Positions 3,140 to 27,396 of a DNA stretch of 64,000 nt are shown in pieces. The position numbers and the translations under genes were made by a program. Every line of letters starts with the position of its first letter. Positions within the stretch are counted from its first letter, which is position 1. The notes below the pieces were generated by a model. The model was not told the DNA's origin. It worked only from the letters and a program-made list of their open reading frames with translations, and did no database searches. The stretch spans positions 64,001 through 128,000 of the forward strand of contig JBFMAF010000034.1 in assembly GCA_040755995.1 (NCBI GenBank), given 5' to 3'. Source of the DNA: Acidobacteriota bacterium. GTDB lineage: Bacteria > Acidobacteriota > CAIWXX01.

Positions 3140-4294
3140 TTGGAGGTTAAGGGAGACATGGCATCTGTTCCAGTGTTCGCTCCATCCTCGACATTCCGTG
3201 ACGAGCTGCGGCGCCGGGGAGGCGAGACGGCGCTCCGGTGCTACCAGTGTGCGACATGTTCGAGCGTCTGCGAGCTGGCCCCCGCCGAAGCTCCATTTCC
3301 GCGTCGCCAGATGCTTTGGGCGCAGTGGGGACTGGCGGACCGGATAGCGGCGGACCCGTCGGTCTGGCTTTGTCACCAGTGCAACGATTGTACTCAGCGA
3401 TGCCCGCGAGACGCGAAACCTGGTGACGTGCTTTCCGTGGTTCGCGCGCTGACCATCGAGAAGCTGGCGTTCCCGCGGTTCGTGGGGAGCCTTGTCGGGA
3501 AGGTCCGTGTGACGTGGCCGTTGGTTCTCGGCATCCCCATCCTGTTCTGGGTCCTCCTGCTCATGGCGGTGAACGGCCTGCAGGTGCCGCAGGACTTCCG
3601 GGCGTACGAGCAGTTCGTGCCGCACTGGTTGCTGTACGCGGTCTATTTTCCCGTGGTGGGCTGGGTGGTATTGGCGAGCTGGGTGAGCGGCCGCCGATTC
3701 TGGTCGCTGCTTGGACTGGGGGCCTCGCGCAACGGATCCTTCCTGGGGCATCTATGGCCGGCGCTGATGGAGGTCGGCACGCACAAGCGCTTCGGCAACT
3801 GCACCGCTGCGCGTCCGCGCAAGATCGCCCACCTTGCGCTGCTGTGGGGCTTCGTCGGCGCGGCAGTGACATCGGGGCTTCTGATCATGGCGATCTACGT
3901 CCAGGGCATGACGCTCGACAACGGGCAGATGCCGCTCTCTCTGTGGCACCCGTACAAGATCCTCGGCAACATCTCGGCGGTATTGCTCGTTGTCGGTGGG
4001 GTGCTGCTGGTGGCGAACCGGTTGCAAGACGGAGTCCGCTCCGGTGCCTCGACAGCATTCGACTCGTTCTTCCTGACTGTTGTGGGACTCGTGATCGTGA
4101 CGGGCGTACTCACCGAAGCAGGGCGATTCGGATTTACTCCGGAGCTGGCATGCGCGCTCTACGTGGTGCACCTGGGTGTGGTACTCTGCCTGTTCGTCAC
4201 GTTCCCCTATTCCAAGTTCGCGCACATGCTCTACCGTACGCTGGCAATGGTTCACGCCAGGATGGCGGGCATCGTCTCACCGCGCGCCAAGTAG
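3140..4294 (+). CDS. qmoC: QmoC, FeS plus membrane subunit (start may be ATG 3158)
   Basis: CYQCATCSSVC and CHQCNDCTQRCP, several transmembrane segments, C-terminal PYSKFAHMLYR. Confidence 0.93.
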   Translation: MEVKGDMASVPVFAPSSTFRDELRRRGGETALRCYQCATCSSVCELAPAEAPFPRRQMLWAQWGLADRIAADPSVWLCHQCNDCTQRCPRDAKPGDVLSVVRALTIEKLAFPRFVGSLVGKVRVTWPLVLGIPILFWVLLLMAVNGLQVPQDFRAYEQFVPHWLLYAVYFPVVGWVVLASWVSGRRFWSLLGLGASRNGSFLGHLWPALMEVGTHKRFGNCTAARPRKIAHLALLWGFVGAAVTSGLLIMAIYVQGMTLDNGQMPLSLWHPYKILGNISAVLLVVGGVLLVANRLQDGVRSGASTAFDSFFLTVVGLVIVTGVLTEAGRFGFTPELACALYVVHLGVVLCLFVTFPYSKFAHMLYRTLAMVHARMAGIVSPRAK

Positions 4295-4368
4295 AGCGCT
4301 GCCCAGGTGACGACGCGACAATGCAATGAATCTCGCGAGATAATCTCAACGTAAAAGGAGGAGTACTC

Positions 4369-5637
4369 ATGAGTAAACTCGTACAACCGCATGGGAGTGC
4401 GGATCTGAAGGCTCTTCTGCTTCAGGGGAAGGAAGCGGAGGAGGAGAAGAAGAAGGCTGAGACGCTCAAGAAGGTCCCCATGACCAGCCGGGAAACCTCG
4501 GACTTGATCATGATGGCCATCGGAGCTTTCACGCCGCTGCCGGGGTTCATGGGCCGGGACGATTGGAAGGGCTGCTGCGAGAACTACCAGCTGCCGTCCA
4601 TGAAGAACCTGTTCTGGCCCATCCCGATCACGCTGTCGGCCGAGCAGGCGCTTGCCGATTCGATCAAGATCGGCGAGGAAGTCGGGCTCTGGGACACGGA
4701 GACCGAGGCCTATGTCGGGACGATGAAGGTCACCGAGAAGTACGGGATCGACAAGGATTACGAGTGCAAGCAGGTGTTCCGGACCACCGACAAGGCGCAC
4801 CCGGGCGTGCAGAAGGTCATGGAGCAGGCACCCGTCAACCTGGCCGGCCCGATCCGGCCGTTCTCGGAGTCCTACTACCCCGAGATGTTCTCCACCATCT
4901 ATCAGCGGCCTGCCGAAGCGAGGAAGGCCTTCGAGGAGCGCGGGTGGAGCACCGTGGCGGCGCTGCAGCTCCGCAACCCGATGCACGGCTCGCATGCATA
5001 CCTGGCGTGGATCGCCATCGAAGTGTGCGACGGCGTCTACATTCACCAGCTCGTCGGCAAGCTGAAGCCGGGAGACATACCGGCCGAGGTGCGCGTGAAG
5101 GCAATCGATGCGCTCGTGAACAAGTACTTCCGCAAGGAGCGCGTGATCCAGGGCGGGTACCCGATGGAGATGCGCTATGCCGGACCGCGTGAGGCGCTGT
5201 TGCACGCCGTGTTCCGCCAGAACTACGGCTGCAGCCACCTGATCGTCGGCCGCGACCATGCAGGTGTCGGCGACTACTACGGCCCGTTCGATGCGCAGAA
5301 GATCTTCCTGGAGATCCCGCACGGAGCGCTCGAGCTCAAGCCGCTGCCGCTCGACTGGACCTTCTACTGCTACGAGTGCAAGGGCATGGCGTCGATGAAG
5401 ACCTGCCCGCACGAGAGCAAGGCCGTGATCGACGAGAACGGCAACTACAAGGGCGGCGCCAGGCTCCTGCTCTCCGGCACGCTGCTCCGGAAGCTGATGA
5501 GCGAAGGGAAGCCCGTGCCCGAGGAGTTCAGCAAGCCCGAGGTCATCGCGATCCTGAACGACTACTACAACAGCCTCGAGAAGAAGGTGGAGATCAAGCT
5601 GCACGGATTCGCCACCGGCGAAGCCGGCAAGAAGTAA
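4369..5637 (+). CDS. sat: Sulfate adenylyltransferase, copy 1
   Basis: [40 protein letters not shown] motifs; RBS AGGAGG. Confidence 0.97.
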
Positions 5638-5668
5638 TTACCCCCTTTACCCTCGCCTAACCTTCACC

Positions 5669-5700
5669 AACCGGGGCCTCCAGGCCCCGGTTTTTCTTTT
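5669..5700 (+). terminator. Intrinsic terminator after sat copy 1
   Basis: AACCGGGGCCT-CC-AGGCCCCGGTT hairpin followed by TTTCTTTT. Confidence 0.85.
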
Positions 5701-5880
5701 CGGCGGGGCCGTCCCAACCCTCGCATGCAGCTCTTCCACCGTGGCCCAGGATGGGCTGCACTCGCCCCCTCCCGACCCCTGCGCGAAATTTGACAGGCGA
5801 CGTGCGCCCTGCTACGCTTCGCCCATGTTTCGCTTCCTTCATGTGCATTCTCAAACGCTGCAGGCCCGGATAGGTCGGGG

Positions 5881-6183
5881 AGGGACCTGGCCGATGACGG
5901 CCTGGACTCCCTGTAGTCACGTCTTCTTGCTGCCGGTGGCCACAGCGACGTCGATGGCCGCATCGACCACTCGAAGCCCGGGCCGACGATGACCACGGCC
6001 TGCATCAACGCATCGAAGGGGCGGTTCGTTCACCACGCGGCCCCGTTCCAATGCTTCACCGACACCCTTGGCTTCCAGGCTGGCGTGATGGCCAGGGGTG
6101 TGCAGGTCGGGAACGCGGTGCCCAGACTTCTCGGCGAGGTGGTGTCGAGGGTGACGAACGCAGCCGTGACAGCAGTAGGGTGA
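5881..6183 (+). pseudogene. 3' relic of a C5-cytosine DNA methyltransferase
   Basis: HSDVDGRIDHSKPGPTMTTACINASKGRFVH...QVGNAVPRLL aligns by eye with FSDVYGRMAWDAVAPTITTGCVNPSKGRFLH...LIGNAFPPEL of the intact MTase at 12445-13500; in-frame TAG at 5914; no N-terminal motifs. Confidence 0.8.
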
Positions 6184-6207
6184 TCAGATCTGACGACGGG
6201 TGGTCGG

Positions 6208-7422
6208 ATGGCGCAATGTCACTTCGAGGACATACTGGCGCGCTGTGCCCGAGAAAGAGACGAAAGCGCATTCTCTGATCTGATCGCCTTCTCCAAGGAG
6301 CGTCAGCTGTCCGTGGATCAGATCAGCCGTTTGGCCACGGTTCTTGCCGACTCGGGGGACAGGTTCAGCTCTCCACATCAGTGGCAGACTGCTGATATTG
6401 CCTCGACCGGTGGGCCAACATCTCTCTCCACAATCATGTCTCCACTTCATCTGCGCTGCCTTGGCTCTCATGTGATCTCATTGGGGGTCCCTGGGCGCCC
6501 GGCTGGCGCGGTAGACGTCCTCGCCCAGATTCCCCGCTACAAGGTGCACCTCTCAAGAGGTGACGCACAGGCGGTTCTGGCAGAGTGCGGCTACGTTCAT
6601 CTTGTTGCCGACAGTACTTTTGCCCCTTTGGACGCCGCCTTGTTTAGTTTCCGGCGCCGAACAAAGGCGCCGCCGGTAGGTGCCATCGCCGTTGCGAGTC
6701 TGCTGTCGAAGAAGCTAGCAGTGGGAGTTCGCAGTGTCGGGCTGGATGTTCGCGTGGGCCATCATGGGAACTTCGGTGCCACGCTGCCGGAAGGCAGGGA
6801 GAACTCGATCACTTTTTGCCGCACGGCTCGCAACCTTGGCATCCATGCGACCTGCTTCTTGACTGATGGAACGATGGCCTACCAGCCCTATGTCGGCAGA
6901 TCCGAAGCACTTCTTGCGATAAGGGCCTTGATCGACGGCACTGCCTCACAATGGCTCCTAGAGCACAACCATCTATGTCGGCAAATGGCCTTGACGCTGC
7001 GCGGGGGTTCAGAGCCAACGAGTGCACTCTCTCTCCGAGACGCCTTTACCGCCAACCTGGAAGCACAGGGGTCCAACTACACCAACTTCCTTGCGCAGGC
7101 AGGTCGCGTGGAAGCGGCACCTCGTTTTCCGATCCGAGCGCCGTTGAACGGCTTCGTGAGGATCGATTTGGGCACCCTCAGGCTCTTGCTGGGTAAGTGG
7201 CAGTCAGGCGGGGATTGCAGTGCATCCGAGTACCCAGACGCTTGTGGCGTGACGTTGGTTCGACAATACGACGAGTTCGTGCACACGGGGGACGTGATAG
7301 CCCTGGTACGATGCCCGCATGAGGCTGCTGCACAGGCCACCGAAGACCTCGCGCGTGCATTCGGGATATCCGACGTGCCACTGCGAGCCGCTACAACCGA
7401 GATCATCGAGTCAGTCGGATGA
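6208..7422 (+). CDS. Divergent thymidine/pyrimidine-nucleoside phosphorylase (NP-II family)-like protein
   Basis: DIASTGG (canonical DKHSTGG), FAPLDAALFSFRR, ASLLSKKLA, LDVRVG, QPYVGRSEAL; stop overlaps the next ATG (ATGA). Confidence 0.8.
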   Translation: MAQCHFEDILARCARERDESAFSDLIAFSKERQLSVDQISRLATVLADSGDRFSSPHQWQTADIASTGGPTSLSTIMSPLHLRCLGSHVISLGVPGRPAGAVDVLAQIPRYKVHLSRGDAQAVLAECGYVHLVADSTFAPLDAALFSFRRRTKAPPVGAIAVASLLSKKLAVGVRSVGLDVRVGHHGNFGATLPEGRENSITFCRTARNLGIHATCFLTDGTMAYQPYVGRSEALLAIRALIDGTASQWLLEHNHLCRQMALTLRGGSEPTSALSLRDAFTANLEAQGSNYTNFLAQAGRVEAAPRFPIRAPLNGFVRIDLGTLRLLLGKWQSGGDCSASEYPDACGVTLVRQYDEFVHTGDVIALVRCPHEAAAQATEDLARAFGISDVPLRAATTEIIESVG

Positions 7423-10400
7423 ACCAACCAGGAGGCACCATGCTCAGGCAAGAGTACGCATGTTTTCTTCATCCGCGCAGCAAGGGCCAGAGCCTGGACG
7501 AGAAGTGCTCCGAGTGCGGTCTTCCATTCAGCTTTCCTCTGAGTAATGCCCCCGTAGAGATTGCTGGGCGGACCATCCGCCGAGGCATAAGCCGTGGCTT
7601 CTACGGCGCTGTATACGAGGCAGAGCATCGCACCATCAGGAACCGCACGTCCGCTATCAAGGTGATACCATTCGCCATCTACGCACCGGTTGAATCGGGA
7701 GGATACGGTAAGGACTTCTCGGCAGAGCTGCAACTTCATCAAGAGCTCTCGGCGATCGACTTGGTCGCAAGGCTTCTGGACGCCGGCGAATTCGAACTCT
7801 CCTTCAACAACGTCCGCATCCCTTGCCATTGGCTGGAGATGGAGTATGTTCGCGGCCCTACATTGAGGGATCTTATCGAAGCGGGTCCAGAGAACCCCCG
7901 CATCATTGCTCAGGTGGCATCCGATCTCTTCGACCTTGTGGAGCAGCTCCAGCAGCGCGGCAAGTTCCACAACGACCTCCATTCCGAGAATGTAAAGATT
8001 GTTCCCCTTGATCGCGGCCTGTGGCGAAGCAGTGCCATTGCCAAGAATGTTCAGACGAAGGTCCTTGATCTCGGCTCGGTCGCAGACGCATCGAAGTCCG
8101 CGCCAGCCCGGTGGGGGGATATCCATCAGGTCGCCAGCCACATCCTTTCACTCACGGAGGCTTACGAGCGGGCCATTCCGTCAGTGGAGCCGGGCGATCA
8201 GAGGATCGTCTCAAGACTGAGGCAGGCGGCTCAACACTGGTGCGCTGCGGATTGTGACTCGCGGCGCGCGCGCCCACATGACCTAAAGGCGAGCATCGCA
8301 GCCGCGTGCAGCTATGGCGCAGAGTGGTGGATGGAGTCTCACCGCCTTGATGCAATTGGTGCTCACATCAACGCTGTCACCATGCCCTCCCATAGGGCTC
8401 ATGCGCTCTTTTGCGGGCCAGCGGGATGGCGCGATGTAATGCTGGAATCGGGCACCACGTTGCTCACGGGAATGCGCGGCTGCGGCAAGACGATGCTGCT
8501 CCGTTCGATCCACTGGCAGGCCAGGGTATTTCAATACGATGGAGAGACAGAAGAGGAGGTCCGAGAGAGGGTCAACACCGACCGGTTTCTCGGTCTGTTT
8601 GTTTCCTGCGCAACGTTGCTTCGAGGCCCCCGGCCGACTCACATCCCGGAACTGGTGATGCATCGCCTGTTCCTTGCCTTCGCCCTCGAGGCAGTCCACT
8701 TCATCGAGACGTGTGACTTGCGGAAGATAGGATCGTTCGACGGCCATGGGTCTGCCAGGCTCTCAGACCTTGCAGCGCGTATCGCACCCTGGTACATAGC
8801 CCCGCAGGAACCAGCCGACCTCTACGCTTTGGAGGCGTCTATTCTCAGCGCGCTCAACAACGTCCCTTCGGAAAGTGGAGGGATAGCAGAGCTCAACCCG
8901 CGGGAGGCGTTCGAGGACCTCACCGCAGTGCTCCGATCCTGGGGCGATGTCGTCGGCAGCAAGAGATTGCTGTTCTTGTTGGACGATGTGTCGGTTCGCT
9001 ACATGTCCCGCGAGAATGTTGAGACTATCCTGAAGCAACTATGCTTCCAGAGCGGCATGTTCAGCTTCAAGCTCTCGACAGAAACACAGACACTGGCCCT
9101 GCATGCCCCAGGGGAGAAGCTTGCACAGGTTGGGCGAGACTATCAAGTCTTCGACCTTGGGGAGGAGGTATTCGCGATACTTCGGGACCGCAAGCAGAGT
9201 TGCGAGTTCTTTAAAGACATCCTGATGAAGAGGGCTGTCTCAACGACGAACCTGTCAGCCGCCCAGAGAGGTATGCCGGACATCCTCTTGGGACGGCTCT
9301 CTCTCACCGACATAGCAAGAGGCATTCGCGGGGAGTTCGGGAAGGGCAAGAAAGGCGAGAAGTTCCTTTACTGGAGCCTGGATGGACTTGTTGCGCTGTG
9401 CGTCGGCGATCTCGGCGACATCATCACCCTCTATGAGAGAATGGTCCAGCATGTAGCTCCCGAGCGACCCAGCGTGGCCCCCAACGTCCAGCACAAAGAA
9501 CTGATTGACTTTGCTGAAGCGCGGCTACGCGCACTCGCGGTGAGAGATCCCTGGCTGTACTCGCATGCAGTGGCTTTTGCCCAGGCAAGCAACCGGGAGC
9601 TGTTGGGCAGCACGCCGCAGCGGCTAAGGCAATATGCAGAGGTGGACGTGACCATCGGAATTGAGGCCGCGAACGAGCTCTTCCCCTTGGTCATGAAGCT
9701 TGTTGATGAAGGCGTCTTTGTGGCAACCGGCGCAACCTCCCGCATGAAATCGCGGGACGTGCTGCAGTTCAAACTCGCATTCCGAAAGATACTCGGGCTG
9801 ACCCACAGGATTCCCTTGAGCATGAGGGACCGCTTTGAGCTCCAGAATGCACGGCTCTCCTCATGGCTGAAATCGCCGAGCAGTGCCGTTCTGGAGAGCA
9901 GCCGTGCCGCTGATGAGACGGAGCCCGATGCAGAGCAGGAGCCGGAGCCTTCGGCGGTTGAGTTGCAGGCAGCTGAGCAGCAGCTGTCGCTCGCTTTCGA
10001 CGGGGAGAGCATGACCCGAGGGGATGCCCGAAAGCCCGATGAAGCACCTTCCATCGCGAGGGTGCTCCCTACTCCCCGTCTCCTTCACGACGTGACATCA
10101 CGACGGATACCACCCTCGCGCTGGGGTGCAGCACTGGCCAACTGCACTGTGGTTGCCGCCATCGGCTTTGAGGATAGGTCGATTGGGGCCTGGAAGAACC
10201 TGCTTGTCCGCACAGTCCCTAGACGTGCGGTCTTGCTGCGCTATCCTGACCCGGGTCTCATGAATGCAGCAAACGAGAGGATCCTGACATCGATGCTGAG
10301 GGAATCGACAGTTGACACCGTGATCGTCGACACCGGCAGTCTACCGTCGGATGATCTGGCGCTTTGCGTCGCGGCAGATGTCACGGGGTTGCTGGTCATA

Positions 10401-11120
10401 GATGTTACGTCGATGACAAAGGCGATTATCTTCGACTTGGTTCGGAAGGGATTGGTTGAAAGGCATCGCTTGGCGCTCTTGCATACGTGCGCCGATCAGT
10501 ATTTCCCAAGGGAGTCGGAGTTGTCAGACATCGCGGAGCAACTGACGATCAGCCTTGACAAGGTGCGCTCACCCAAGGGCCTAAAGGAGACCTTCGACGA
10601 GCTGGACAGGAGAGTCACCGGCACAAAGGGGCCATACGAATGCAATCAGATAGGAGAGACACACGCGGACCCCAGTCAACCCGTATTTCTTGCCGCGCTC
10701 ATTTCGCTCAAGCATGAACCTATCAGAGCGATACTCGAACAGGGCGCCGTCGAGCGAAGTGCGATGATCTATCCTGTCCACTCTGCGGGTAGGAGGGCGC
10801 GCCGTTCGGTGGTGGCGGAGCAACTGGCTCATTTCCTGGGCCAGATGTACCACGGAGATGCGATTCCCGCGAAATCTCTGGATCACGTAGCAGTGTATCG
10901 CGAACTGAAGGCGCTCCATCAAAGGTGGAGTCTCAGCTCGTCATACAATTTCGAGGTGGCATTGGCGGGGACCAAGATGCACACGGTTGGGGCGGCGATG
11001 TTCGCTGCGACAGCAGTGCCGTCGTCAGTGTACTATGCCAAGACGAAGGGGTTCGATGTCTCTGCATTCACGCAGGGCACGGGAGAGACACAGGCGCATG
11101 TACTGGAGCGGACGGAATGA
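7419..11120 (+). CDS. Multidomain protein: Zn-ribbon, Ser/Thr kinase-like domain, P-loop ATPase (ORC/CDC6-like) and C-terminal Rossmann/CARF-like region
   Basis: CFLH..CSEC; kinase motifs SRGFYGAVY, AIKV, MEYVRG, HNDLHSEN, DLG; Walker A GMRGCGKT; Walker B LLFLLDD; the C-terminal assignment (GFEDRS, IDVTSMTK, GTKMH) is tentative. Confidence 0.75.
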   Translation: MNQPGGTMLRQEYACFLHPRSKGQSLDEKCSECGLPFSFPLSNAPVEIAGRTIRRGISRGFYGAVYEAEHRTIRNRTSAIKVIPFAIYAPVESGGYGKDFSAELQLHQELSAIDLVARLLDAGEFELSFNNVRIPCHWLEMEYVRGPTLRDLIEAGPENPRIIAQVASDLFDLVEQLQQRGKFHNDLHSENVKIVPLDRGLWRSSAIAKNVQTKVLDLGSVADASKSAPARWGDIHQVASHILSLTEAYERAIPSVEPGDQRIVSRLRQAAQHWCAADCDSRRARPHDLKASIAAACSYGAEWWMESHRLDAIGAHINAVTMPSHRAHALFCGPAGWRDVMLESGTTLLTGMRGCGKTMLLRSIHWQARVFQYDGETEEEVRERVNTDRFLGLFVSCATLLRGPRPTHIPELVMHRLFLAFALEAVHFIETCDLRKIGSFDGHGSARLSDLAARIAPWYIAPQEPADLYALEASILSALNNVPSESGGIAELNPREAFEDLTAVLRSWGDVVGSKRLLFLLDDVSVRYMSRENVETILKQLCFQSGMFSFKLSTETQTLALHAPGEKLAQVGRDYQVFDLGEEVFAILRDRKQSCEFFKDILMKRAVSTTNLSAAQRGMPDILLGRLSLTDIARGIRGEFGKGKKGEKFLYWSLDGLVALCVGDLGDIITLYERMVQHVAPERPSVAPNVQHKELIDFAEARLRALAVRDPWLYSHAVAFAQASNRELLGSTPQRLRQYAEVDVTIGIEAANELFPLVMKLVDEGVFVATGATSRMKSRDVLQFKLAFRKILGLTHRIPLSMRDRFELQNARLSSWLKSPSSAVLESSRAADETEPDAEQEPEPSAVELQAAEQQLSLAFDGESMTRGDARKPDEAPSIARVLPTPRLLHDVTSRRIPPSRWGAALANCTVVAAIGFEDRSIGAWKNLLVRTVPRRAVLLRYPDPGLMNAANERILTSMLRESTVDTVIVDTGSLPSDDLALCVAADVTGLLVIDVTSMTKAIIFDLVRKGLVERHRLALLHTCADQYFPRESELSDIAEQLTISLDKVRSPKGLKETFDELDRRVTGTKGPYECNQIGETHADPSQPVFLAALISLKHEPIRAILEQGAVERSAMIYPVHSAGRRARRSVVAEQLAHFLGQMYHGDAIPAKSLDHVAVYRELKALHQRWSLSSSYNFEVALAGTKMHTVGAAMFAATAVPSSVYYAKTKGFDVSAFTQGTGETQAHVLERTE

Positions 11121-11147
11121 TGCGGCGGGCAAGTCTGAGGGGTAGTC

Positions 11148-11564
11148 ATGCCTGATGTCTTCGATAGGCAGAAGCGATCCGAGATTATGCGCAAGATCGG
11201 GCCCAAGGACTCGGCACCGGAGATGCGCGTCCGCTCGATCGTTCACCGCCTGGGCTACCGGTTCCGACTCCATGGTCGTGATCTCCCAGGCACCCCCGAC
11301 ATCGTGCTGCCCGGGCACCGCAAGGTCATCTTCATGCACTCCTGCTTCTTCCACGGCCATAGGGACTGCCCGAGGGCGACAATTCCGGCGACGCGCTCGG
11401 GGTTCTGGGAGGTCAAGATCGAGGGCAACGCCAGGCGTGACCGCGCGAGCCGCCGTAGGCTTAGGCGCCTCGCATGGGAGTGCCTGGTCATCTGGCAGTG
11501 CGAGATACGAAAAGGTACCGAAGAGCGGCTTCGGGCGAAGATCCGCAGGTTCCTGGAGGGGTGA
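11148..11564 (+). CDS. vsr: Very-short-patch repair endonuclease
   Basis: DVFDRQKRSEIMRKI, DLPGTPDIV, FMHSCFFHGH, FWEVKIEGNARRD, VIWQCE. Confidence 0.95.
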   Translation: MPDVFDRQKRSEIMRKIGPKDSAPEMRVRSIVHRLGYRFRLHGRDLPGTPDIVLPGHRKVIFMHSCFFHGHRDCPRATIPATRSGFWEVKIEGNARRDRASRRRLRRLAWECLVIWQCEIRKGTEERLRAKIRRFLEG

Positions 11565-11750
11565 AGGATGGGGAAGGGCATCTTCACGCCGGGCGCAACC
11601 GCCGCATGACGACATCCCATAGATCCGCTACCGCTTGACCGCAACGAACCCAACAAGTCCCGAGAGGAGGAGCGGCGACCGGATGTCCCGCTTCGCGGAT
11701 GCGGGGGGTGAGTCCATCTTTCGCGACATGCTCGCCGATCGCAGAGTCCG

Positions 11751-12380
11751 TGTGGCATACGGCTCAGACAAATTGACCCACTTTGCTCAGATAAACTGAC
11801 CCACCTAACGGACGGCCTTTTTTGTTTCCAAGCAGCAACATCTGGGTCGAGTCTGGTGAGTGGTATATGTGTGGACGAATCCGGGTGGTCCGCATGCAGG
11901 GTGGGCGGAGGGGGACGGCGCACTTAGCGGATTGTTGACCGGGGATCTCGGAAGCAGATGACCGGGGGTTTGGGGAAACGTGACTGCGGGCGGTCACTTG
12001 GGGGCGAGACGGCGGTCAACAGTTGCGCAAACGCGTTGGGGGCCGCGTGGGACAGGGCGGTCATGCTCCCAGCTTTGAAGGAGGGAAAGGAATGAAGGCA
12101 TGGCAAGAAAGCGGCCATCCATCCGCCATGCACGAGACATTCTGCCACTGAGGCGCGAAGTCCCGGCTGGGTGTTCGAGAGACCGCCCGCAGCCAGCGCG
12201 AGGGTCGCGGCAAGCTCGTCAAGTACCTGCGCTGGCGCAGGCAGCGGAGGGTAGGGTGGTCGCTGCCGGAGGTGATCGCCCACGCCCAGCTGCAGCAGTT
12301 GCTCTCTTCCGCCCAGAAGCCTCCGCCGGTGGCCCCCGCCCGGGGGAGAGACTGGACGCTATTCAGGAAAAGCAACCCCG
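11751..12380 (+). mobile_element. Decayed IS21-family remnant(s): terminal repeats plus a frameshifted istA 5' end
   Basis: TG-initiated end with two 23-bp-period repeats GCTCAGAYAAAYTGACCCACYT (11762-11806); from 12100 MARKRPSIRHARDIL..VKYL..WSLPEVIAHAQLQQLL..DW, resembling the IstA N-terminus across broken frames. Confidence 0.65.
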
Positions 12381-12444
12381 CGTTGTGGAGCATAGAGCGG
12401 GGGCCACGCTCCGGACCACCATCGATTCAGCAGAGGAGCCCTGG

Positions 12445-13500: not shown

Positions 13501-13524
13501 TGTCCCTCGGAATCCACTCTCTGG

Positions 13525-15195: not shown

Positions 15196-15214
15196 AAGAC
15201 GTCCCTCCTCAATG

Positions 15215-17011: not shown

Positions 17012-17051
17012 GATGTCCTCCCTTCAGCGAGTCTCCTGACGGCCTCCTGAC

Positions 17052-17080
17052 AAAGTATGCCTGAGGCGCATTGATGTCAA
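17052..17080 (-). promoter_or_regulatory. Possible sigma70 promoter for nurA-herA-dcm
   Basis: TTGACA-N17-TACTTT on the minus strand about 40 bp upstream of the start. Confidence 0.4.
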
Positions 17081-17389
17081 GCGGCATCGGAAAGCATCCC
17101 TGCAATTCAGACGCTGGGGAGAGGATTCGGCGATCCAGCGGGCGCGGCAGCTACGGCAGGGGCACTTACCTACGTTGGAAGGCGGGGGACCGGGGGGGGC
17201 CGGCGGTGCTGCGGTGTGAATCGAGATGTGGCATCACTGGAGAAGGCGGGAATGCCCACGCAGATCACGCCATCTGGTCTGAAGAAGCCAAGTGGAATCC
17301 GTTGAGACTCACGCGAGCAAGGGTGAGACCGGTCCGGAGCTTCTAGTAGAGCCAGAGGGGGAGCGGTGGAGGTGTCAGTGCCCTCGACG

Positions 17390-19048: not shown

Positions 19049-19467
19049 TGCTTCTTCTCCCGATTCCTCCGAAGCCGACGAGGCGGCGGTGGTGGCAGCC
19101 GCAATGCCTTCTCCAGCCGGTCCACTGCCGCAAGAATCTCACTCTGAATCCGCACGAGAGTCGCCCGAGCCCGGCGGAAATCCCGATAGCGCAGCGTGAG
19201 CCGTTGAACCCGGAGACTGTCGGCAGGGGACACCGACCGCAAGCGCGTCTTGCCCTCCTCACTCCAGGTGATAACGTCGCTGACGTGTCGCGCCTCCTCA
19301 GACCTGGCGCAATGGCAGCCGGCCTTCCCGCACCGCGTGCGCAGCTTGTAGAGCGTCCCCTTGATCAACTCACGGGGTCGCAACAACGCCTCGATCAGGC
19401 GGCGATGCCGCTCGATCAGGTCGTGGAGCGTCTGCCTTTGACGGCTCGCATGTACCAAATCGGCCAT
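19045..19467 (-). CDS. IS-associated small Cys-rich protein (DUF6788-like)
   Basis: GTL...RCGKAGCHCA motif; stop overlaps the transposase start. Confidence 0.7.
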   Translation of the reverse strand: MADLVHASRQRQTLHDLIERHRRLIEALLRPRELIKGTLYKLRTRCGKAGCHCARSEEARHVSDVITWSEEGKTRLRSVSPADSLRVQRLTLRYRDFRRARATLVRIQSEILAAVDRLEKALRLPPPPPRRLRRNREKKQ

Positions 19468-19857
19468 TCTGGACCTCAGCCTTTATTCGCATTCTAGTAA
19501 TAACATAAAGATTCAACCAAGGCAACAAGAAAAATGTGAGTTCCGACGAATAACCCTCCCTAACTCGGCCGACTAGCCGCCAGGGAGCCTACCCCTCGGA
19601 AAACCGGCCCATCGCCGCATGTGGCCGCTGGGCGGCCCGCCCTCCGAGGTTCACGGCAGGATCGTGGAGCCGGCGACAGGAGCCCGGGTGACGCCACACC
19701 CTACTGTCTGAATCGCAGGGAAAGCATCCGAGAAAGGGAGAATGGACGGCCAATGCCGTCCAGCTGCCGAGCCTTCCTTGTTCCCATGTGTAATCCCTAG
19801 TTGGCGCCGCCCCTGGGGAACCTGGTACCGATCGATGATGTGCCAGCCTTCCTGTGG

Positions 19858-20098
19858 CGGCGTTCGACACGTTCTTCCTGACGGTGGTCGCGCTGGTGAT
19901 CCTGACAGGTGTCCTCACGGAGGGGGGCGACTTGCATTCACACCGGAGCTGGCCTGTGTGCTCTACGTGGTGCACCTGGGCGTGGTGCTCTGCCTCTTCA
20001 TCACGTTCCCCTACTCCAAGTTCGCGCATATGCTCTACCGTACGCTGGCCATGGTTCACGCCAGAATGGCGGGCATCGCGTCACCGCGCGCCAGGTAG
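19858..20098 (+). pseudogene. qmoC: Diverged, frameshifted 3' fragment of qmoC
   Basis: AFDTFFLTVV..LTE then FTPELAC..PYSKFAHMLYR in a different frame; many third-position differences versus 4055-4294. Confidence 0.9.
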
Positions 20099-20166
20099 AG
20101 CGCTGCTGAGGATGGGACAATCCAACAAGTCTCGCGAGATAATTTCAACGAAAGGGAGGAGTACTC

Positions 20167-21435
20167 ATGAGTAAACTCGTATCGCCGCATGGGAGTGCGG
20201 ATCTGAAGGCTCTTCTGCTTCAAGGCAAGGAAGCGGAGGAGGAGAAGAAGAAGGCTGAGACGCTCAAGAAGGTGCCCATGACCAGCCGGGAAACCTCGGA
20301 CCTGATCATGATGGCCATCGGAGCTTTCACGCCGCTGCCGGGGTTCATGGGCCGGGACGATTGGAAGGGCTGCTGCGAGAGCTACCAGCTGCCGTCCATG
20401 AAGAACCTGTTCTGGCCCATCCCGATCACGCTGTCGGCCGAGCAGGCGCTTGCCGATTCGATCAAGATCGGTGAGGAAGTCGGGCTCTGGGACACGGAGA
20501 CCGAGGCCTACGTCGGGACTATGAAGGTCACCGAGAAGTACGGGATCGACAAGGAGTACGAGTGCAAGCAGGTGTTCCGGACCAACGACAAGGCGCATCC
20601 GGGCGTGCAGAAGGTCATGGAGCAGGCACCCGTCAACCTGGCCGGTCCGATCCGGCCGTTCTCGGAGTCCTACTACCCCGAGATGTTCTCCACCATCTAT
20701 CAGCGCCCCGCGGATGCGAGGAAGCTGTTCCAGGAGCGCGGGTGGAGCACCGTGGCGGCGCTGCAGCTGCGCAACCCGATGCACGGCTCGCACGCATACC
20801 TGGCGTGGATCGCCATCGAAGTCTGCGACGGCGTCTACATCCACCAGCTCGTCGGCAAGCTGAAGCCGGGAGACATACCGGCCGAGGTGCGCGTGAAGGC
20901 GATCGATGCGCTCGTGAACAAGTACTTCCGCAAGGAGCGCGTGATTCAGGGCGGGTACCCGATGGAGATGCGCTATGCCGGACCGCGTGAGGCGCTGTTG
21001 CACGCCGTGTTCCGCCAGAACTACGGCTGCAGCCACCTGATCGTCGGCCGCGACCACGCAGGTGTCGGCGACTACTACGGCCCGTTCGATGCGCAGAAGA
21101 TCTTCCTGGAGATCCCGCACGACGCACTCGAGCTGAAGCCGCTGCCGCTCGACTGGACCTTCTACTGCTACGAGTGCAAAGGCATGGCGTCGATGAAGAC
21201 CTGCCCGCACGAAAGCAAGGCCGTGATCGATGAGAACGGCAACTACAAGGGCGGCGCCAGGCTCCTGCTCTCCGGTACGCTACTTCGCAAGCTGATGAGC
21301 GAAGGCAAGCCGGTGCCCGAGGAGTTCAGCAAGCCCGAGGTCATCGCGATCCTCAACGACTACTACAACAGCCTCGAGAAGAAGGTGGAGATCAAGCTGC
21401 ACGGATTCGCCACCGGCGAAGCCGGCAAGAAGTAA
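20167..21435 (+). CDS. sat: Sulfate adenylyltransferase, copy 2 (full-length, intact)
   Basis: 422 aa, nearly identical to copy 1 with a few substitutions. Confidence 0.95.
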
Positions 21436-21466
21436 TTACCCCCTTTACCCTCGCCTAACTTTCACC

Positions 21467-21498
21467 AACCGGGGCCTCCAGGCCCCGGTTTTTCTTTT
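21467..21498 (+). terminator. Intrinsic terminator after sat copy 2
   Basis: Same hairpin and T-tract as 5669-5700. Confidence 0.85.
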
Positions 21499-21689
21499 CG
21501 GCTCATGAGGTGCCTGACCACAATAGGTCGTGCCCGATGTGTTCAGTGGTCTGGATGCGCTTCTTCTTTCCCCGCCGCATGACGCCCGTGCCTTGCTCGA
21601 GGGAAACGGCGAGGCGGTGAGGGGGAGACGCGGAGAACCGAACACCACCTCTTCACCGCGTGTCCGCGTCGCTGCGACTCCCTCTCTCT

Positions 21690-21826
21690 TCGTTCGTATC
21701 GAAGCTCCGGGAAGGCCGTCTCGCTCGCGGTACCGGGTGCTGAAGCCTGCCGCCTCCAAGCAAGCAGCAAGCTGCTGGGCCAAACCGGAATCCTCTTCAA
21801 CGTGACTCGTGAAAACGTCTGGCATC
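21690..21826 (-). pseudogene. Truncated TIR-domain gene (start of a third cassette)
   Basis: MPDVFTSHVEEDSGLAQQLAACLEAAGFSTRYRERDGLPG resembles the TIR_2 N-terminus; similarity is lost afterwards. Confidence 0.65.
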
Positions 21827-21851
21827 GGATATATCCCGCCGCTCGTTGTAC

Positions 21852-21914
21852 GCCCAACGCCGAGCATCAGCGGCACGAGGTCTTATCCGTGTCCGCTGGA
21901 CGCTCTTGTTCGGC
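21852..21914 (-). repeat. Integron attC site
   Basis: Minus strand GCCGAAC-aagagcgtccagcggac...ccgctgatgctcggc-GTTGGGC; 63-bp imperfect palindrome at a gene 3' end. Confidence 0.85.
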
Positions 21915-22109
21915 ACGTCTTGCCCTGGCGGTCGTGGCTCGGCGGCTTATCTCCTCGATTGTGAGATCCTCGTCGAGGCCCTCTCGCCACTTTGTTTGGT
22001 CAAATGGTTCTCGCTGAATCAGCGCTACGAAACGCTCGGCTTCAATGTCGCCAAGATACCTAGCTAGGACCTGTAGCCCCTTCATACGGATCTCAGTGTC
22101 AGTAATCAT
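21867..22109 (-). CDS. Small antitoxin-like partner of PIN toxin
   Basis: MITDTEIRMKGLQVL..EAERFVALIQREPFD; ATGA-coupled to the PIN gene; reads into attC. Confidence 0.65.
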   Translation of the reverse strand: MITDTEIRMKGLQVLARYLGDIEAERFVALIQREPFDQTKWREGLDEDLTIEEISRRATTARARRAEQERPADTDKTSCR

Positions 22110-22562
22110 AGCCTGCGCTCCTTGATAAACAGTATCGGGTCCGCGATGTTGATTGCCGTCACCCGAGGCTTGCATTTCAATATTCTGTCATCGGTTGTGA
22201 TGAAGTACTCGCATCCAGCGGCGATTGCGCAGGCCAGGTGCAAGGAATCGATCTTCGGAAGGCCCTCTTCATGCAGACTGCTCGCGTTCGCGAGCAGCTC
22301 GGGGCTCTCCTGGACCTCCAATTCAGCGCAGGCCCTCCAGACGCTAATCCGGCTCTTGCGTTCCGGATACGGGTTCCTGTCGTTCTCGTAATCCAGAATA
22401 TAAGACCAAACCCGGGATGCTTGTGACAAGCTGGTAATCCTTGCTGTGTTTATCCCACCAGTCCCGCGTCCATTTCGTGCGCGCGGCCATTTCCGGTTCG
22501 CTGCGGGTCTCGTAGTAGAAGCTCGGTATCGTCGTTTCGATGTAGACAAGCTGCTTCAGCAC
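22106..22562 (-). pseudogene. Broken, probably chimeric PIN-domain toxin
   Basis: 5' part VYIETTIPSFYYE in one frame; 3' part WSYILDYEN..DSLHLACAI..FITTDD in another. Confidence 0.7.
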
Positions 22563-22716
22563 AAATCAGCCGCTGGCATTGAAAATCCGGTCAATCCGTC
22601 ACGCAACACTCGGGTGATACGGTTCGGCTCTTCTGCTTCCACCATAGCACCTCCTCTTGCGATGTAGTACATCCCGCGGTTTCATCGATGTCATGCTCTG
22701 CAAGTCAACCGGCCCG

Positions 22717-22780
22717 GCCCAACACCCCAGATCAGCGGCGGGCCGCGCAGCGGACCGTCCGCTGCAACCGGTTGTTAGGC
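22717..22780 (-). repeat. Integron attC site
   Basis: Minus strand GCCTAAC-aaccggttgcagcggac...ccgctgatctggggt-GTTGGGC; the upstream gene's TAA lies inside GCCTAAC. Confidence 0.9.
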
Positions 22781-23453
22781 CGGAGGCTCCTCGCGCTCGA
22801 ACCTCGCGAGTTCGGCGAGGTGCCCGGCCGCCGATCGCAGTGCCCGACCCGAGAGGGCGTCCACCAACCGGCGGGCCCGTGGCCCGAGGTCAGGGCGCTC
22901 GACGTACCTGCGCGACAACAGGTGCCCGAGCGCGAGGAACGCCAGCCCGAAGACGACGTTCGCGATGAGCCAGGCAAGATCGATGCGGGCGAGCGCATCA
23001 ACGCCGGTCAGCGCCTCGAACAGAACCAGACCTGCGGGGAGCCAGGCTACCACGCCTCCGATCACTGCCCACTTGAGTGCACGGTACTCCACGAGCCTAG
23101 TGTGCTCGAGCTCGCGCTGGATCTCCATTACCGGTGCGCCGTAGTCGAGCTTGAGGCTGTTGACCAACAGGTAGGTGCACAGCGCGGTGATCGCGCCGGT
23201 GAGCACGGCAAGCGCGCCACCCACGATGGCGTAGCGCGGCTCGGTTACGTGAGCGGCGAGGACCGACATCGCGACGACGAGCATGGTGATGCCGAGCGCC
23301 ACCTCCAGCGCCCTCCACAGGACGTAGGGCGCGAGGGCGAAGCGGACCTTGCGCAGCAGCGCTTCGCGCAGAAGCCGCTGGTCGATGGCGACGCTCCGCT
23401 CCAGCATGGTGCCGTGCGCGGCCCAGGCTTCTTTCAAATCATCGAACTGCATG
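22775..23453 (-). CDS. Membrane protein, putative anti-sigma factor
   Basis: MQFDDLKEAW N-terminus, about 4 transmembrane segments, overlaps the ECF sigma gene. Confidence 0.7.
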
Positions 23454-23957
23454 TGATCCTCCCGTGTTGCTCGCGCGCTGGTCCAACGCGACGCGCAGCT
23501 TGTTTTTGATGCGCAATAGTTTCGTGCCGACGTTTGACACGGAGATGCCGAGCACTTCCGCGATCGACGCGTGGTCGGTCCCGTCGAGGTAGAGAAGGAC
23601 GAGCGCCTTATCGAGCGCGCCCAGATCGTCGATGCAGCGCAAGAGGAGTTGGACATCCTCGTTGGGCTCGACGCAAGCTGCCGCGATGGTGATCGCGTGG
23701 GCGTCGAGCGACAGGTGCCCCTCCCGATGCCGCCGTCCACGGCGGTAAAACGAGATCGCGACGTTGAGCGCGATGCGATAGACCCACGTCGTCTCCTTGT
23801 AGCGCTCGTCGTACCGGTGGCGGTAGCGCCAAAGTTGCAGGGCGACCTCCTGAAAGACGTCCTCGCGGTCCGTCACGTCCCGGCAATAGGCGTAGGCGAT
23901 CTTGTGGATCAGCCGGGCGTGCCGCCGGATCAGGTCGGTGAACTCTTGGGCTTCCAT
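23439..23957 (-). CDS. ECF sigma-70 factor
   Basis: EDVFQEVALQLW, TWVYRIALNVA, IAEVLGISVSNVGTKLLR. Confidence 0.92.
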   Translation of the reverse strand: MEAQEFTDLIRRHARLIHKIAYAYCRDVTDREDVFQEVALQLWRYRHRYDERYKETTWVYRIALNVAISFYRRGRRHREGHLSLDAHAITIAAACVEPNEDVQLLLRCIDDLGALDKALVLLYLDGTDHASIAEVLGISVSNVGTKLLRIKNKLRVALDQRASNTGGSHAVR

Positions 23958-24100
23958 CGGGGGTATTATTCGCAGGCGCCCCTCGCCAGATCACAGGCTC
24001 AGTCGTTCTTTCTTCCGGCGCCCCGACGCAGGGGGCTGCTGAGCCCCGCCGCCTCCACGGACGGCCTGAAGAGAGCCCGCCTGCGCCGATCCCGCTATCG

Positions 24101-24135
24101 GCCTAACAATAATTAGACTGATCCGCATAAGATGC
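24101..24135 (-). other. Probable integron attI site
   Basis: Minus strand CTTATGCGGATCAGTCTAATTATT-GTTAGGC at the head of the array; AT-rich; no attC hairpin. Confidence 0.6.
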
Positions 24136-24675
24136 GGAACTACGCTTCCCTGCCTTGATAGCGCGTCGCTGATTCATCCGGCAGAATCGCGATAAGTCCT
24201 TCTGTTTCAGTCATTTGTGCCCCATGCTTTGGAATATCCTCCGTTCTTATGCGGATCGGCATAAGAACCTCCTCGTTGCCTCAAAGTCCGTCAACCGGGC
24301 TGCGTAGGCCCCTGAGTTCCCCGTCACGCGGGGTGGCCGCTTCCTGGGGCGCCCGCCCGGGTTGCGCCGCGCGATGGCCCACCGAGTTCACCGGACGAAG
24401 CGAAGGGGCCACCTCAACCGGTTCGCCAGTGACGACGTCGACCGGGCATCCCCTCGGTGTCCGGCACTGTACGATGCTTCTCTTCGGGATGCCAGCGCCG
24501 ATCAGGGGTAGTCTTGATCTTCGCCACTCGTTGCGGCTCATATGGCACGATCACTCTCAACCGCCCCCTGCGTCCTGGATCAACTACTACAGCGCTAATC
24601 GCTGCGAACTCCCTCCATTCTGAACCGAGACGACGAATGTGTCAACAAGGCTTGCGCGTGCGCGTGCGCGCACCC

Positions 24676-25035
24676 ACCACGGCCCGTTCGATTCGCAGAA
24701 GATCTTCCTCGTGATCCGGCACGGCGCTCGAGCTCAAGCCGCTGCCACTGGACTGCACATTCTACTGCTACGAGTGCAAGGGCATGGCGGCGAGGAAGAC
24801 CTGCCCGCACGAGAGCAACGCGGTGATCGACGAGAACGGCAACTACAAGGGCGGCGCCAGACTCCTGCTCTCCGGCACGCTGCTCCGCAAGCTGATGAGC
24901 GAAGGCAAGCCGGTGCCCGAGGAGTTCAGTAAGCCCGAGGTCATCGCGATCCTGAACGACTACTACGACAGCATCGAGAAGAAGGTGGAGATCAAGCTCC
25001 ACGGTCACGCCACAGGCGCCGCCGAGAAGAAATAG
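24676..25035 (+). pseudogene. sat: sat 3' fragment, copy 3 (frameshifted)
   Basis: Matches copy 1 from about 5276 to the stop, with indels and substitutions. Confidence 0.92.
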
Positions 25036-25065
25036 CCACCCTCTATACCCTTGCTACGCTTCACC

Positions 25066-25098
25066 AACCGGGGCCTCCGGGCGCCGGTTTTTCCTTTC
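25066..25098 (+). terminator. Degenerate copy of the sat terminator
   Basis: AACCGGGGCCTCCGGGCGCCGGTTTTTCCTTT. Confidence 0.7.
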
Positions 25099-25111
25099 GG
25101 TAGCAAAGTTC

Positions 25112-25157
25112 TTGACATCATACCCATTATGGGGTGTATCATTCCCAATATGGGAAT
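25112..25157 (+). promoter_or_regulatory. Promoter with palindromic operators for the MNT-HEPN pair
   Basis: TTGACA at 25112, TATCAT at 25137 (19-bp spacer); palindromes CCCATTATGGG and ATTCCCAATATGGGAAT. Confidence 0.55.
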
Positions 25158-25755
25158 GAGCAGGTCATCGGTGGGGATCGCTGACGCATTGTTCACCAAG
25201 GTGCAGCAGCGTGTGCTTGGGGTTCTCTTGGGAAATCCTGGCCGGACTTTCTACGCCAACGAGATCATCGCGCTCGCCGGGTGCGGCACCGGCGCGGTCC
25301 AGCGGGAGCTGGCCCGCCTTGCAGCGGCGAAGCTGGTGACGGTCACCCGCGTTGGCAATCAGAAGCACTACCAGGCAAACGCTGCCGCGCCTGTCTTCGA
25401 GGAGTTGCGCGGCCTGGTGCTGAAGACCTCCGGGCTAGCTGATGTGCTTGGTGCTGCGTTGGCACCGCTGGCGACGCAGATCAGTGCTGCTTTCGTCTAC
25501 GGCTCGGTGGCCAAGGGGCAGGACACGGCAGTGAGCGACATCGATCTGATGGTGCTGAGCGACACTTTGGCCTACGCCGATCTCTTTGTCGCCCTCGAAG
25601 GGGCCGCGAAACGGCTCTGTCGCCAGGTGAATCCGACGGTGTACTCTCGGCAAGAACTCGGCAATCGGATTCAACAGGGCAATTCCTTTGTCACACGGGT
25701 CCTGGCGCAACCCAGGCTCTGGTTGATCGGTGGGGAACGTGATCTCGGCGCTTGA
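25150..25755 (+). CDS. HTH-fused minimal nucleotidyltransferase (MNT) antitoxin
   Basis: N-terminal wHTH (GAVQRELARL), YGSVAKG..SDIDLMV. Confidence 0.85.
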   Translation: MGMSRSSVGIADALFTKVQQRVLGVLLGNPGRTFYANEIIALAGCGTGAVQRELARLAAAKLVTVTRVGNQKHYQANAAAPVFEELRGLVLKTSGLADVLGAALAPLATQISAAFVYGSVAKGQDTAVSDIDLMVLSDTLAYADLFVALEGAAKRLCRQVNPTVYSRQELGNRIQQGNSFVTRVLAQPRLWLIGGERDLGA

Positions 25756-26167
25756 GAACCTGTGCGGCCCAGGGAAACCGCTCAAGAAGGAACCGCCTGA
25801 TACCCAGGAATATCAGGGCCTGAGGCGGTCCGGATTGGTACGGCTTGCCGACGCCGGCAACACCGCCAACTCGCTCGAGAGCCGCTTCGACCTGGGCTAC
25901 AACGCGGCGCATTCCCTATGCTTGGCGGCGTTGCGCCGTCACGGCTATCGGGCGGTCAACCGATACGTCGTCTTTCAGGTGTTGCCGCACACTCTGGGCC
26001 TGGGGCCGGAGGTATGGCGCGTCCTGGCCAAGTGCCATGACCTCCGGAATCTCGGCGAGTACGAGGGCGACCTCGGGGTCGATGGGCGAATCGTAACCGG
26101 CCTGATCGCCGCCTGTCAGGCAGTGGCCGCCAGGCTGGACGCGCTGGGACCGCCGAGCCAACCGTGA
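25730..26167 (+). CDS. HEPN-like toxin
   Basis: RFDLGYNAAH, HDLRNLGEYEG; overlaps the MNT gene. Confidence 0.75.
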   Translation: MGNVISALENLCGPGKPLKKEPPDTQEYQGLRRSGLVRLADAGNTANSLESRFDLGYNAAHSLCLAALRRHGYRAVNRYVVFQVLPHTLGLGPEVWRVLAKCHDLRNLGEYEGDLGVDGRIVTGLIAACQAVAARLDALGPPSQP

Positions 26168-26425
26168 CCGCCGTTGGCCAGATCGAAATGCTGACGCAGC
26201 AGCGGGTGGTGGCGCTGTCAAGCGACTCGGCGGGCTAGGCAGATTCCTTGGGACTGTCTTGCCGCAACGGCGTCGCCGGGCCTGTCTTTGGGCCGTAGCA
26301 CTGCCGCCGCCCTTTATGCCGAGCTTCGCGAATAGATCTACGTGCGGTATCTCTGAGTACTGCGGCAGCAGGCCGCGCCCGCGGGCCTGATCGAGCATGG
26401 CGAGTATCTCGCCGAACTGCAGTTT

Positions 26426-27213
26426 CGATCCGGCCATTCTCGGAGCCCTACTACCCCGAGATGTTCGCGAGCATCTACCGGAGGCCTGCTGACGCGAGGA
26501 AACTCTTCCAGGAGCGCGGGTGGAGCACCGTGGCGCCCCTGCAGCTGCGCAACCCGATGCACGGCTCGCACGCATACCTGGCGTGGATCGCCATCGAAGT
26601 CTGCGACGGCGTCTACATTCAACAGCTCGTGGGCAAGCTGAAGCCGGGAGACATCCTGGCCGAAGTGCGCGTGAAGGCGATCGATGCGCTCGTGAACAAG
26701 TACCTCCGCAAGGAGCGCGTGATCCAGCGCGGGTACCCGATGGAGATGAGGTATGCCGGACCGCGTGAGGCGCTGGTGCACGCGGTGTTTCGCCAGAACT
26801 ACGGTTGCAGCCACCTGATCGTCGGCCGCGACCACGCGGGTGTCGGCGACTACTACGGCCCGTTCGATGCGCAGAAGATCTTCCTGGAGATCCCGCACGG
26901 CGCGCTCGAGCACAAGCCGCTGCCCCTCAATTGGACCTTCTACTGCTGCGAGTGCAAGGGTATGGCGTCGATGAAGACCTGCCCGCGCCAGAGCAAGGCC
27001 GTTATCGATGAGAACGGCAACTACAAGGGCGGCGCCAAGCTGCTGCTTTCCGGCACGTTGCTCCGGAAGCTCGTGAGCGAAGGGAAGCCGGTGCCCGAGG
27101 AGTTCAGCAAGCCCGAGGTCATCGCGATCCTGAACGACTACTACAACAGCATCGAGAAGAAGGTGGAGATCAAGCTGCACGGATTCGCCACCGGCGACGC
27201 CGGCAAGAAGTAA
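26426..27213 (+). pseudogene. sat: sat 3' fragment, copy 4
   Basis: Matches copy 1 from about 4850; lacks the first ~160 codons; missense changes at conserved sites (HQL>QQL, QGG>QRG, CPH>CPR). Confidence 0.92.
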
Positions 27214-27244
27214 CACCCCCTCATGCCCTAGCTACACATTCGCC

Positions 27245-27274
27245 AACCGGGGCCCCGGACCCCGGTTCTTTCTT
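27245..27274 (+). terminator. Degenerate copy of the sat terminator
   Basis: AACCGGGGCCCCGGACCCCGGTTCTTTCTT. Confidence 0.65.
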
Positions 27275-27324
27275 GGCCCTGCCGGATGGTCGACGCTTCG
27301 ATGGCGTGCACCTCTTCAGCGCGC

Positions 27325-27392: not shown

Positions 27393-27396
27393 CCAC

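Follow-up and report, generated by a model that had tools for sequence, protein, structure and literature searches.

Tandem sat-end copies with unrelated cargo in an Acidobacteriota genome, a four-deep case within a genome-wide pattern of partial gene copies

Insertion with long target duplication, reportedly described by Nobusato et al. in 2000, is the nearest named phenomenon to the arrangement studied here: four tandem copies of the 3' end of the sulfate adenylyltransferase gene sat, each followed by different cargo, in a 64,000-nucleotide stretch of an Acidobacteriota genome (the window; contig C34, 64001–128000). As outlined by Furuta et al. (2010; PMC2853133), such insertions place cargo, often defence genes, between long direct repeats of variable length without mobile-element machinery; start or stop codons often lie within the repeats, and natural competence is found in most of the hosts. 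The sat locus shares the cargo between long variable direct repeats and the absence of mobile-element machinery, and by the measures of that study its direct repeats (425–1650 bp) exceed 30 bp and its inserts are shorter than 20 kb. It departs from the described cases in that its repeats stand four deep, are 86–94% identical, bear the mark of purifying selection and look like alleles of other lineages, in that its cargo extends beyond restriction systems, and in that 24 genes of one genome are affected. The combination of a restriction enzyme (R) with a methyltransferase (M) that Furuta et al. (2010) used is missing at sat: cargo 1 holds Dcm and Vsr without an identified restriction enzyme, and cargos 2 and 3 hold neither R nor M.

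Single-crossover insertion-duplication in Escherichia coli, as reported in PMC3240628, produced the same variable 3'-end duplications (there 109–950 bp) flanking foreign DNA, but with a laboratory plasmid of identical homology, whereas the donors at sat would be natural, up to about 17% divergent and involved in repeated events. In the accounts of Rhs C-terminal displacement (PMC2935791) and of the immunity arrays of Vibrio type VI secretion systems (PMC5361080), for which circle models or homology-facilitated illegitimate recombination (HFIR) have been put forward, an intact gene is likewise followed by variable 3' core fragments with different downstream genes. There, however, a toxin tip is swapped and the array is what selection has favoured; at sat a housekeeping gene serves as the anchor, its product is unchanged and the fragments are apparent by-products. 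Integrase-free hotspots and minimal mobile elements, as presented in PMC5635113 and PMC3787668, also have variable cargo beside core genes and homologous exchange, and most transfer hotspots are stated to lack integrases (PMC5635113); the exchange described is double-crossover replacement that leaves no duplicate, whereas cumulative addition leaves scars here. A literature search covering few subscription journals returned no published account of scars of this sort, with cross-species alleles, spread over a whole genome. In outline the footprint has been described before, and it involves no new molecular machine; the sat array is a real and unusually clear instance, four copies deep, of an already known type of scar, and it is part of a genome-wide pattern.

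The genome (G000; 7.73 Mb, 56 contigs numbered with C, contamination 3%) was compared with four others (G001, G002, G004, and G018), with fetched loci (numbered with L), and with an independent sequencing run, X1; copies were sought by self-BLAST of the window and of the whole 7.7-Mb genome. The intact qmoC, last gene of qmoABC (3140–4294, plus strand; NCBIfam NF038018, 397.9 bits against a cut-off of 300), lies upstream of the operon copy of sat (4369–5637, plus strand, 422 aa; Pfam PF01747 and PF14306, with NF003166 above cut-off). The segment common to the downstream copies, termed copy 1, spans 4055–5704 on the plus strand and comprises the qmoC 3' end, sat and a terminator-like hairpin with a T-tract (5669–5704, plus strand; identical in sequence to the site called at 21467–21490), where the alignments end. 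Copy 2 (19860–21502) consists of a frameshifted 3' piece of qmoC, a complete sat and the terminator, and aligns with all of copy 1 (94.2%, 1650 bp). Copy 3 (24676–25100) starts at sat codon 303, is frameshifted, and aligns with 5276–5703 at 89.7%; it has its own natural C-terminus and 3' untranslated region, unlike the operon copy. Copy 4 (26426–27274) starts at codon 161 and aligns with 4850–5698 at 91.8%; its frame is open, with radical substitutions, and its terminator has diverged. All four lie in tandem on the plus strand at intervals of 14.2, 3.2, and 1.3 kb, and the search of the 7.7-Mb genome turned up no further copy of the 4055–5704 stretch.

The tandem, 3'-coterminal layout with different cargo behind each copy, and the start points in qmoC and near sat codons 303 and 161, had been proposed in the initial annotation of the window and are borne out by these alignments. 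Its description of the copies as variably truncated needs one correction: copy 2 is cut in qmoC only, and its sat open reading frame (ORF; 20167–21435) is complete and open, with 422 codons and 8 amino-acid changes. Similarly, homology is lost 3–4 nt beyond the T-tract in copies 1–3, as had been noted, with a boundary that agrees to within 1 nt, but within the T-tract in copy 4. Scans for Rfam families and tRNAs gave no matches, nor did an exact 36-nt pattern searched against JGI metagenomes. Another sat-like domain (37% identity) is present in a 599-aa frame elsewhere in the genome (L026, C30:60130–61275), and G002 has one too.

Misassembly of strain variants is a conceivable source of such a map, as the assembly is of short-read type with 3% contamination. 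Contig ends overlap by 125–128 bp, the pattern expected of short reads assembled at long k. The sat copies match one another exactly over at most 110 bp and are therefore separable in such an assembly. Copies 3 and 4 are moreover decayed, every joint is unique sequence, and the relative sequenced in X1 has the same step profile, all of which makes misassembly extremely improbable. X1, the single usable run (share 0.05), has a depth of 4.5–10x (about 8x) over qmo and 11x over the 5' part of sat. Toward the sat end it climbs to 19.7, 32.9, and 53.7x, and beyond position 5700 it is at most 0.12; the profile concerns qmo–sat and not the junction region at 19500–28500. We read it as support for a nested 3' array carrying other cargo rather than as a copy count, because the depths are summed over contigs.

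Divergence among the copies is dominated by silent changes. Between sat copies 1 and 2 the synonymous divergence (dS) is 0.12 and the ratio of nonsynonymous to synonymous divergence (dN/dS) 0.09; the qmoC piece of copy 2, now useless, has dS 0.47–0.50 and dN/dS 0.14; copies 3 and 4 have dS of about 0.2 with dN/dS of 0.26 and 0.21, respectively. The comparison suggested in the initial annotation thus gives purifying selection throughout (0.09–0.26). Pooled over 31 segments at the 24 genes, 782 silent stand against 496 replacement differences, with a pN/pS of 0.21–0.24, where one copy decaying in place would be expected to give about 0.5. In all nine loci examined at which homology ends before the stop codon, each copy carries a short C-terminal tail of its own. 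The X1 relative differs by 7–13% in qmo, shares 19 of 38 variants with copy 2 (the 38 were taken from a table of 40 shown, with 442 more beyond those) and has a copy-3-like 3' end; among the fetched loci, 10 related sat proteins carry the copy 3 motif LHGHATG. Of the 80 best sat relatives, the majority are labelled Acidobacteriota. Because dN/dS is low and alleles are shared with X1, the copies appear, from these comparisons, to be, for the most part, natural alleles of related lineages that have since decayed somewhat. In this they depart from long target duplications, whose repeats are copies of the resident target: those at sat show purifying divergence and foreign alleles. Copy 2 is probably the youngest, and copies 3 and 4 seem older, with no order between them.

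The same data bear on duplication of the target in place, by break repair or template switching, followed by divergence or by allele replacement of the working copy. This is the framing used for long target duplications in PMC2853133, and it suits the youngest cases: the asnB copies are 99.4% identical and their joint contains pieces matching C13, the short young pairs WYL, SNF2, and asnB have ratios near or above 0.5, and dN/dS is near 1 for WYL and SNF2. Yet the pooled pN/pS, dS values of up to 0.58 with open frames, the natural tails on both copies and the alleles common to X1 leave it quite improbable as a general explanation. An edge gradient produced by gene conversion was also considered, since the qmoC part of copy 2 is far more divergent than its sat (Fisher p 1.4e-5), and was ruled out: X1 has the same contrast between qmo and sat, and divergence is higher at the truncation edge than in the middle at only 8 of 17 loci.

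The pattern extends well beyond sat, an extent that the initial annotation missed. A scan of 4197 crudely called genes in G000 gave 61 anchor rows, in which the partial copy is a 3' piece downstream (29) or upstream (9), a 5' piece upstream (10) or downstream (11), or inverted (2); 5 of the 11 downstream 5' copies are repeated transposase-like pieces on C55. After these C55 repeats, the Rhs-like arrays on C16 and C24, paralog pairs and opposite-strand ORFs had been dropped by hand, and LytTR had been added from a separate comparison, the final list held 24 anchor genes, namely sat and 23 further hand-picked genes with the same scar. They include metH, acsC, asnB, hydantoinase B, GH94, a class III aminotransferase, a Nuo51-family gene, and MMPL. 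The layout of an intact gene, then cargo, then a same-strand partial copy of the cargo-facing end is present at sat and at other loci; the GH94 gene is flanked by pieces on both sides, and at C14, C52, and GH94 the 5' ends are copied upstream together with upstream DNA. Cargo at the other anchors includes BrxL-containing, type I and type II restriction, TIR and toxin-antitoxin genes.

Several of these loci deserve individual mention. The youngest scar (L050, C41:11242–17237) has a 1224-bp asnB 3' copy (99.4%) around a methylase and an XhoI-family gene, so that R and M are both present, unlike in the sat cargos; its joint contains 87-bp (mutase gene) and 50-bp pieces matching C13, and the pair shares a 915-bp exact tract that may be an assembly effect. 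In a second nested array (L047, C36:314019–330724), three pieces downstream of a hydantoinase B gene are arranged around a broken integron and toxin-antitoxin genes. A BrxL-containing island separates metH from its 3' copy of 1120 bp, the end of which runs into a C_GCAxxG_C_C gene (L046, C33:74111–90400). A displaced GH94 fragment is in frame with a tricorn-type S41 protease in a 1505-aa open frame (L033:609–5123), possibly a scar-born gene fusion. The Rhs-like long genes at C16:1–19200 and C24:188882–201400, with core-fragment arrays and variable tips, have the classic displacement form, a label given from layout.

One fixed 20-kb test was used for comparison between genomes. It detected 21 cargo-facing events in the 7.73 Mb of G000 (19 of 406 tiles), along with 14 of other geometry, and 2 events in 282 windows (4.28 Mb) of other genomes (p 0.004 against G000), a sample biased to core regions and short contigs. 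The two comprise one event in 160 sat loci and one in 0.28 Mb of G001; in G004, G018, and 1.04 Mb of G002 there were none. The idea that sat is a general hotspot was therefore rejected: only 1 of the 160 related sat loci (90 of them with at least 5 kb downstream) has a copy, the weak 72% 3' copy in L176. Scar formation is a trait of the lineage, not of sat.

The genome-wide view also weighs on two readings that would make the shared 3' ends the product of a dedicated process. Site-specific elements may bring along a substitute 3' end for the gene they target, as e14 is said to do at icd, and an accretion of such elements with subsequent loss of their integrases would account for the 3' boundary that agrees to within 1 nt in copies 1–3; 20 tyrosine-recombinase matches do exist elsewhere in the genome. 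None, however, lies on C34, and the genome yielded no large serine recombinase, in agreement with the earlier statement that the array has no intact integrase; among the islands checked only that of hyuB has a recombinase, a broken integron integrase. An intact integrase with a fixed attachment core is accordingly absent at sat, where C34 gave no recombinase match and the 5' ends vary. With no common 5' core, anchors in 24 unrelated genes and some copies of 5' ends, we regard such elements as very improbable. Retro-copying of transcript 3' ends, which the initial annotation had kept as its less favoured alternative, would explain why the copies stop at the terminator, and the search for a reverse transcriptase that it proposed found two, both on other contigs. 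Still, the copies stand in tandem throughout, without any dispersed one, and homology extends 3–4 nt beyond the T-tract; because 5' ends are copied upstream, with upstream DNA, at other genes and the copies are foreign alleles, retro-copying is rejected, with a negligible chance of being right.

Junctions away from sat bear on how the spare copies acquired their present limits. Those of MMPL, metH, gabT, and LytTR are patchworks of two or three collinear pieces, and the secondary deletion joint of LytTR has a 7-bp microhomology. The spare copies were therefore once longer and have been shortened by deletions, and hence the present 5' ends are not all original. No common junction motif was seen by eye across 27 pairs. 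At acsC an empty site is available for comparison: in G002 acsC is followed directly by the RACo gene, and in G000 by an AAA gene, 136 bp of the RACo 5' end joined to 208 bp of the acsC 3' end, and a defence island. This joint is head-to-tail, with pieces of both ancestral flanks and a 2-bp microhomology; the incoming DNA therefore had both flanks and ended in tandem with the resident allele. The complete RACo gene lies on C53, and C53 is probably the continuation of C39, the two being linked by a split UvrD gene. If the contigs are so joined, the island between acsC and RACo (L049 and C53:1–22519) is about 35 kb long and has its own SNF2 3' scar. Tracts free of silent-site differences are clear in 2 of 16 pairs (metH, p 0.00075; GH94, p 0.0025) and fit a crossover or conversion inside the duplicated part.

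We consider it roughly an even chance that circularised DNA of a relative integrates by a single crossover and that deletions then trim the spare copy. In this scheme, DNA of a relative, carrying its own qmoC/sat end and its own downstream genes, would close into a circle and enter by one homologous crossover in qmoC/sat, without an integrase. Each event would leave a working sat in the operon with new cargo behind it and would move the former cargo downstream together with a second copy cut at its 5' end; this spare copy would be shortened by microhomology deletions and then decay. The single-crossover circle is favoured because the duplication geometry reported in PMC3240628 matches the sat array: 56 of 60 clones there had lacZ 3' duplications (109–950 bp among the 14 that were sequenced), explained by single-crossover entry of DNA that had been trimmed and recircularised. 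A circle is also given in PMC2935791 as a requirement for Rhs displacement without deletion. Natural transformation is a plausible entry route because genes for ComEC and DprA are present, although both were also matched in 10–11 of 14 control genomes. That sat anchors an additive island, with older ends pushed downstream, was already the view of the initial annotation, and the purifying selection, the foreign alleles and the X1 step profile sustain it, with relatives as the source of the DNA.

The route envisaged in the initial annotation was linear HFIR, in which one end of the incoming DNA recombines in qmo/sat and the far end joins illegitimately in the resident qmoC/sat, leaving the old end downstream. 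It is the main rival, with a chance clearly below that of a circle but well above that of any other: it produces the same map, can draw on the same ComEC and DprA, has been proposed for the Vibrio immunity-gene arrays (PMC5361080), and agrees with the short microhomology at some joints, e.g., the 2 bp at RACo|acsC. Nevertheless, the illegitimate joint must land inside the homologous stretch, and the acsC donor had a downstream flank, which favours plain replacement. According to PMC3240628, HFIR generally yields an insertion together with a deletion, seen in 4 of 60 clones against the 56 duplications; sat has a duplication instead of the recipient deletion. The linear route is thus not established, and the variable 5' ends are at least in part the result of later erosion by deletion.

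A different beginning is a long donor–resident tandem, formed by unequal crossover or a large circle, from which deletions removed the redundant core, so that all present joints are secondary. The patchwork copies of MMPL, metH, gabT, and LytTR, once longer, and the LytTR microhomology speak for such a collapsed hybrid merodiploid; the RACo|acsC joint is compatible with it, and transformation is described as creating merodiploids in pneumococcus (PMC3784515). It differs from circle integration mainly in the size of the first event, however, and the pneumococcal route requires pre-existing repeats, of which none were seen at the sat joints. We judge it improbable.

A number of observations weigh against integration of a circle by one crossover followed by trimming. 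The raw geometry is impure, with 5' copies about equally upstream and downstream (10 and 11) and 3' copies upstream in 9 cases against 29 downstream, and the summed X1 depths possibly include other organisms. Later deletions reshaped the 5' ends, so original junctions may be lost. A significant homogenised tract was found in none of the three sat pairs, and 12 of the 16 pairs have none even nominally. No Ku gene was found in the genome, and the end-joining step is consequently without a named enzyme. Donors of up to dS 0.58 must recombine despite MutS, which is present in the genome. Finally, neither a donor nor a pre-insertion relative of the sat locus was found, and since circle and linear routes give the same map, the two are not directly separable.

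The cargos of the array are unrelated from copy to copy. Cargo 1 is headed by a decayed C-terminal remnant of a cytosine methyltransferase gene (5938–6144, plus strand; blastp E 7e-7 to the Dcm ORF of the window and E 6e-9 to an ORF on C3). It continues at 6208–17011 with a thymidine-phosphorylase-like gene and genes for a kinase-AAA-CARF protein (PADLOC CARF_STK_AAA, 698 bits), Vsr, Dcm, HerA, and NurA. The divergent thymidine-phosphorylase-like gene overlaps that of the 1233-aa kinase-AAA-CARF protein (6208–11120), the two forming a candidate defence pair; NurA, HerA, and Dcm form an operon opposite Vsr (11148–17011), and the remnant at 5938–6144 represents a second, decayed Dcm. An IS4-like element with DUF6788 and a DDE transposase (17097–19721, minus strand) has imperfect 28-bp terminal inverted repeats and an open transposase frame. 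It ends 139 bp before the junction with copy 2, and a junction made by this insertion sequence is unsupported given that distance.

Cargo 2 (21503–24675) includes a frameshifted PIN toxin with its partner, an attC-like site, an extracytoplasmic function sigma factor with a membrane partner, and an intI remnant. The integron content proposed earlier amounts to traces, namely a single attC-like site (22717–22780) and the internally deleted intI remnant (24101–24665). Most of the middle of this remnant is gone; a similar short form is on C55 (234485–235093, 78%), and the sole full-length intI match in the genome, on C36, has an internal stop. Directly after copy 2 lies a dispersed non-coding repeat (21510–21686), with 71–78% matches on C15, C19, C36, and C55. 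Cargo 3 (25101–26425, plus strand) is a nucleotidyltransferase and its partner (PADLOC PDC-M05A/B), and cargo 4 starts with a PemK/MazF-like toxin and a small partner ORF (27397–27959, minus strand).

Double-crossover replacement accounts for the exchange of cargo but not for its accumulation, and the scars reveal an additive step in nature. The divergence of the donor can be read from every spare copy, which makes it possible to test by a simple genome scan how fast, from how wide a range of donors and by what mechanism integrase-free islands grow; extra sat matches in metagenomes can likewise be scars. Tentatively, and with less confidence than for the circle itself, we suggest that this lineage has a general, integrase-free and Ku-free mode of additive gene gain, in which DNA of relatives up to about 15% divergent would enter nearly any core gene as end-joined circles through a single crossover and leave behind a datable piece of donor gene each time. 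If so, the genome would be a fossil record of the cross-species donors of its defence islands, including a whole foreign sat.

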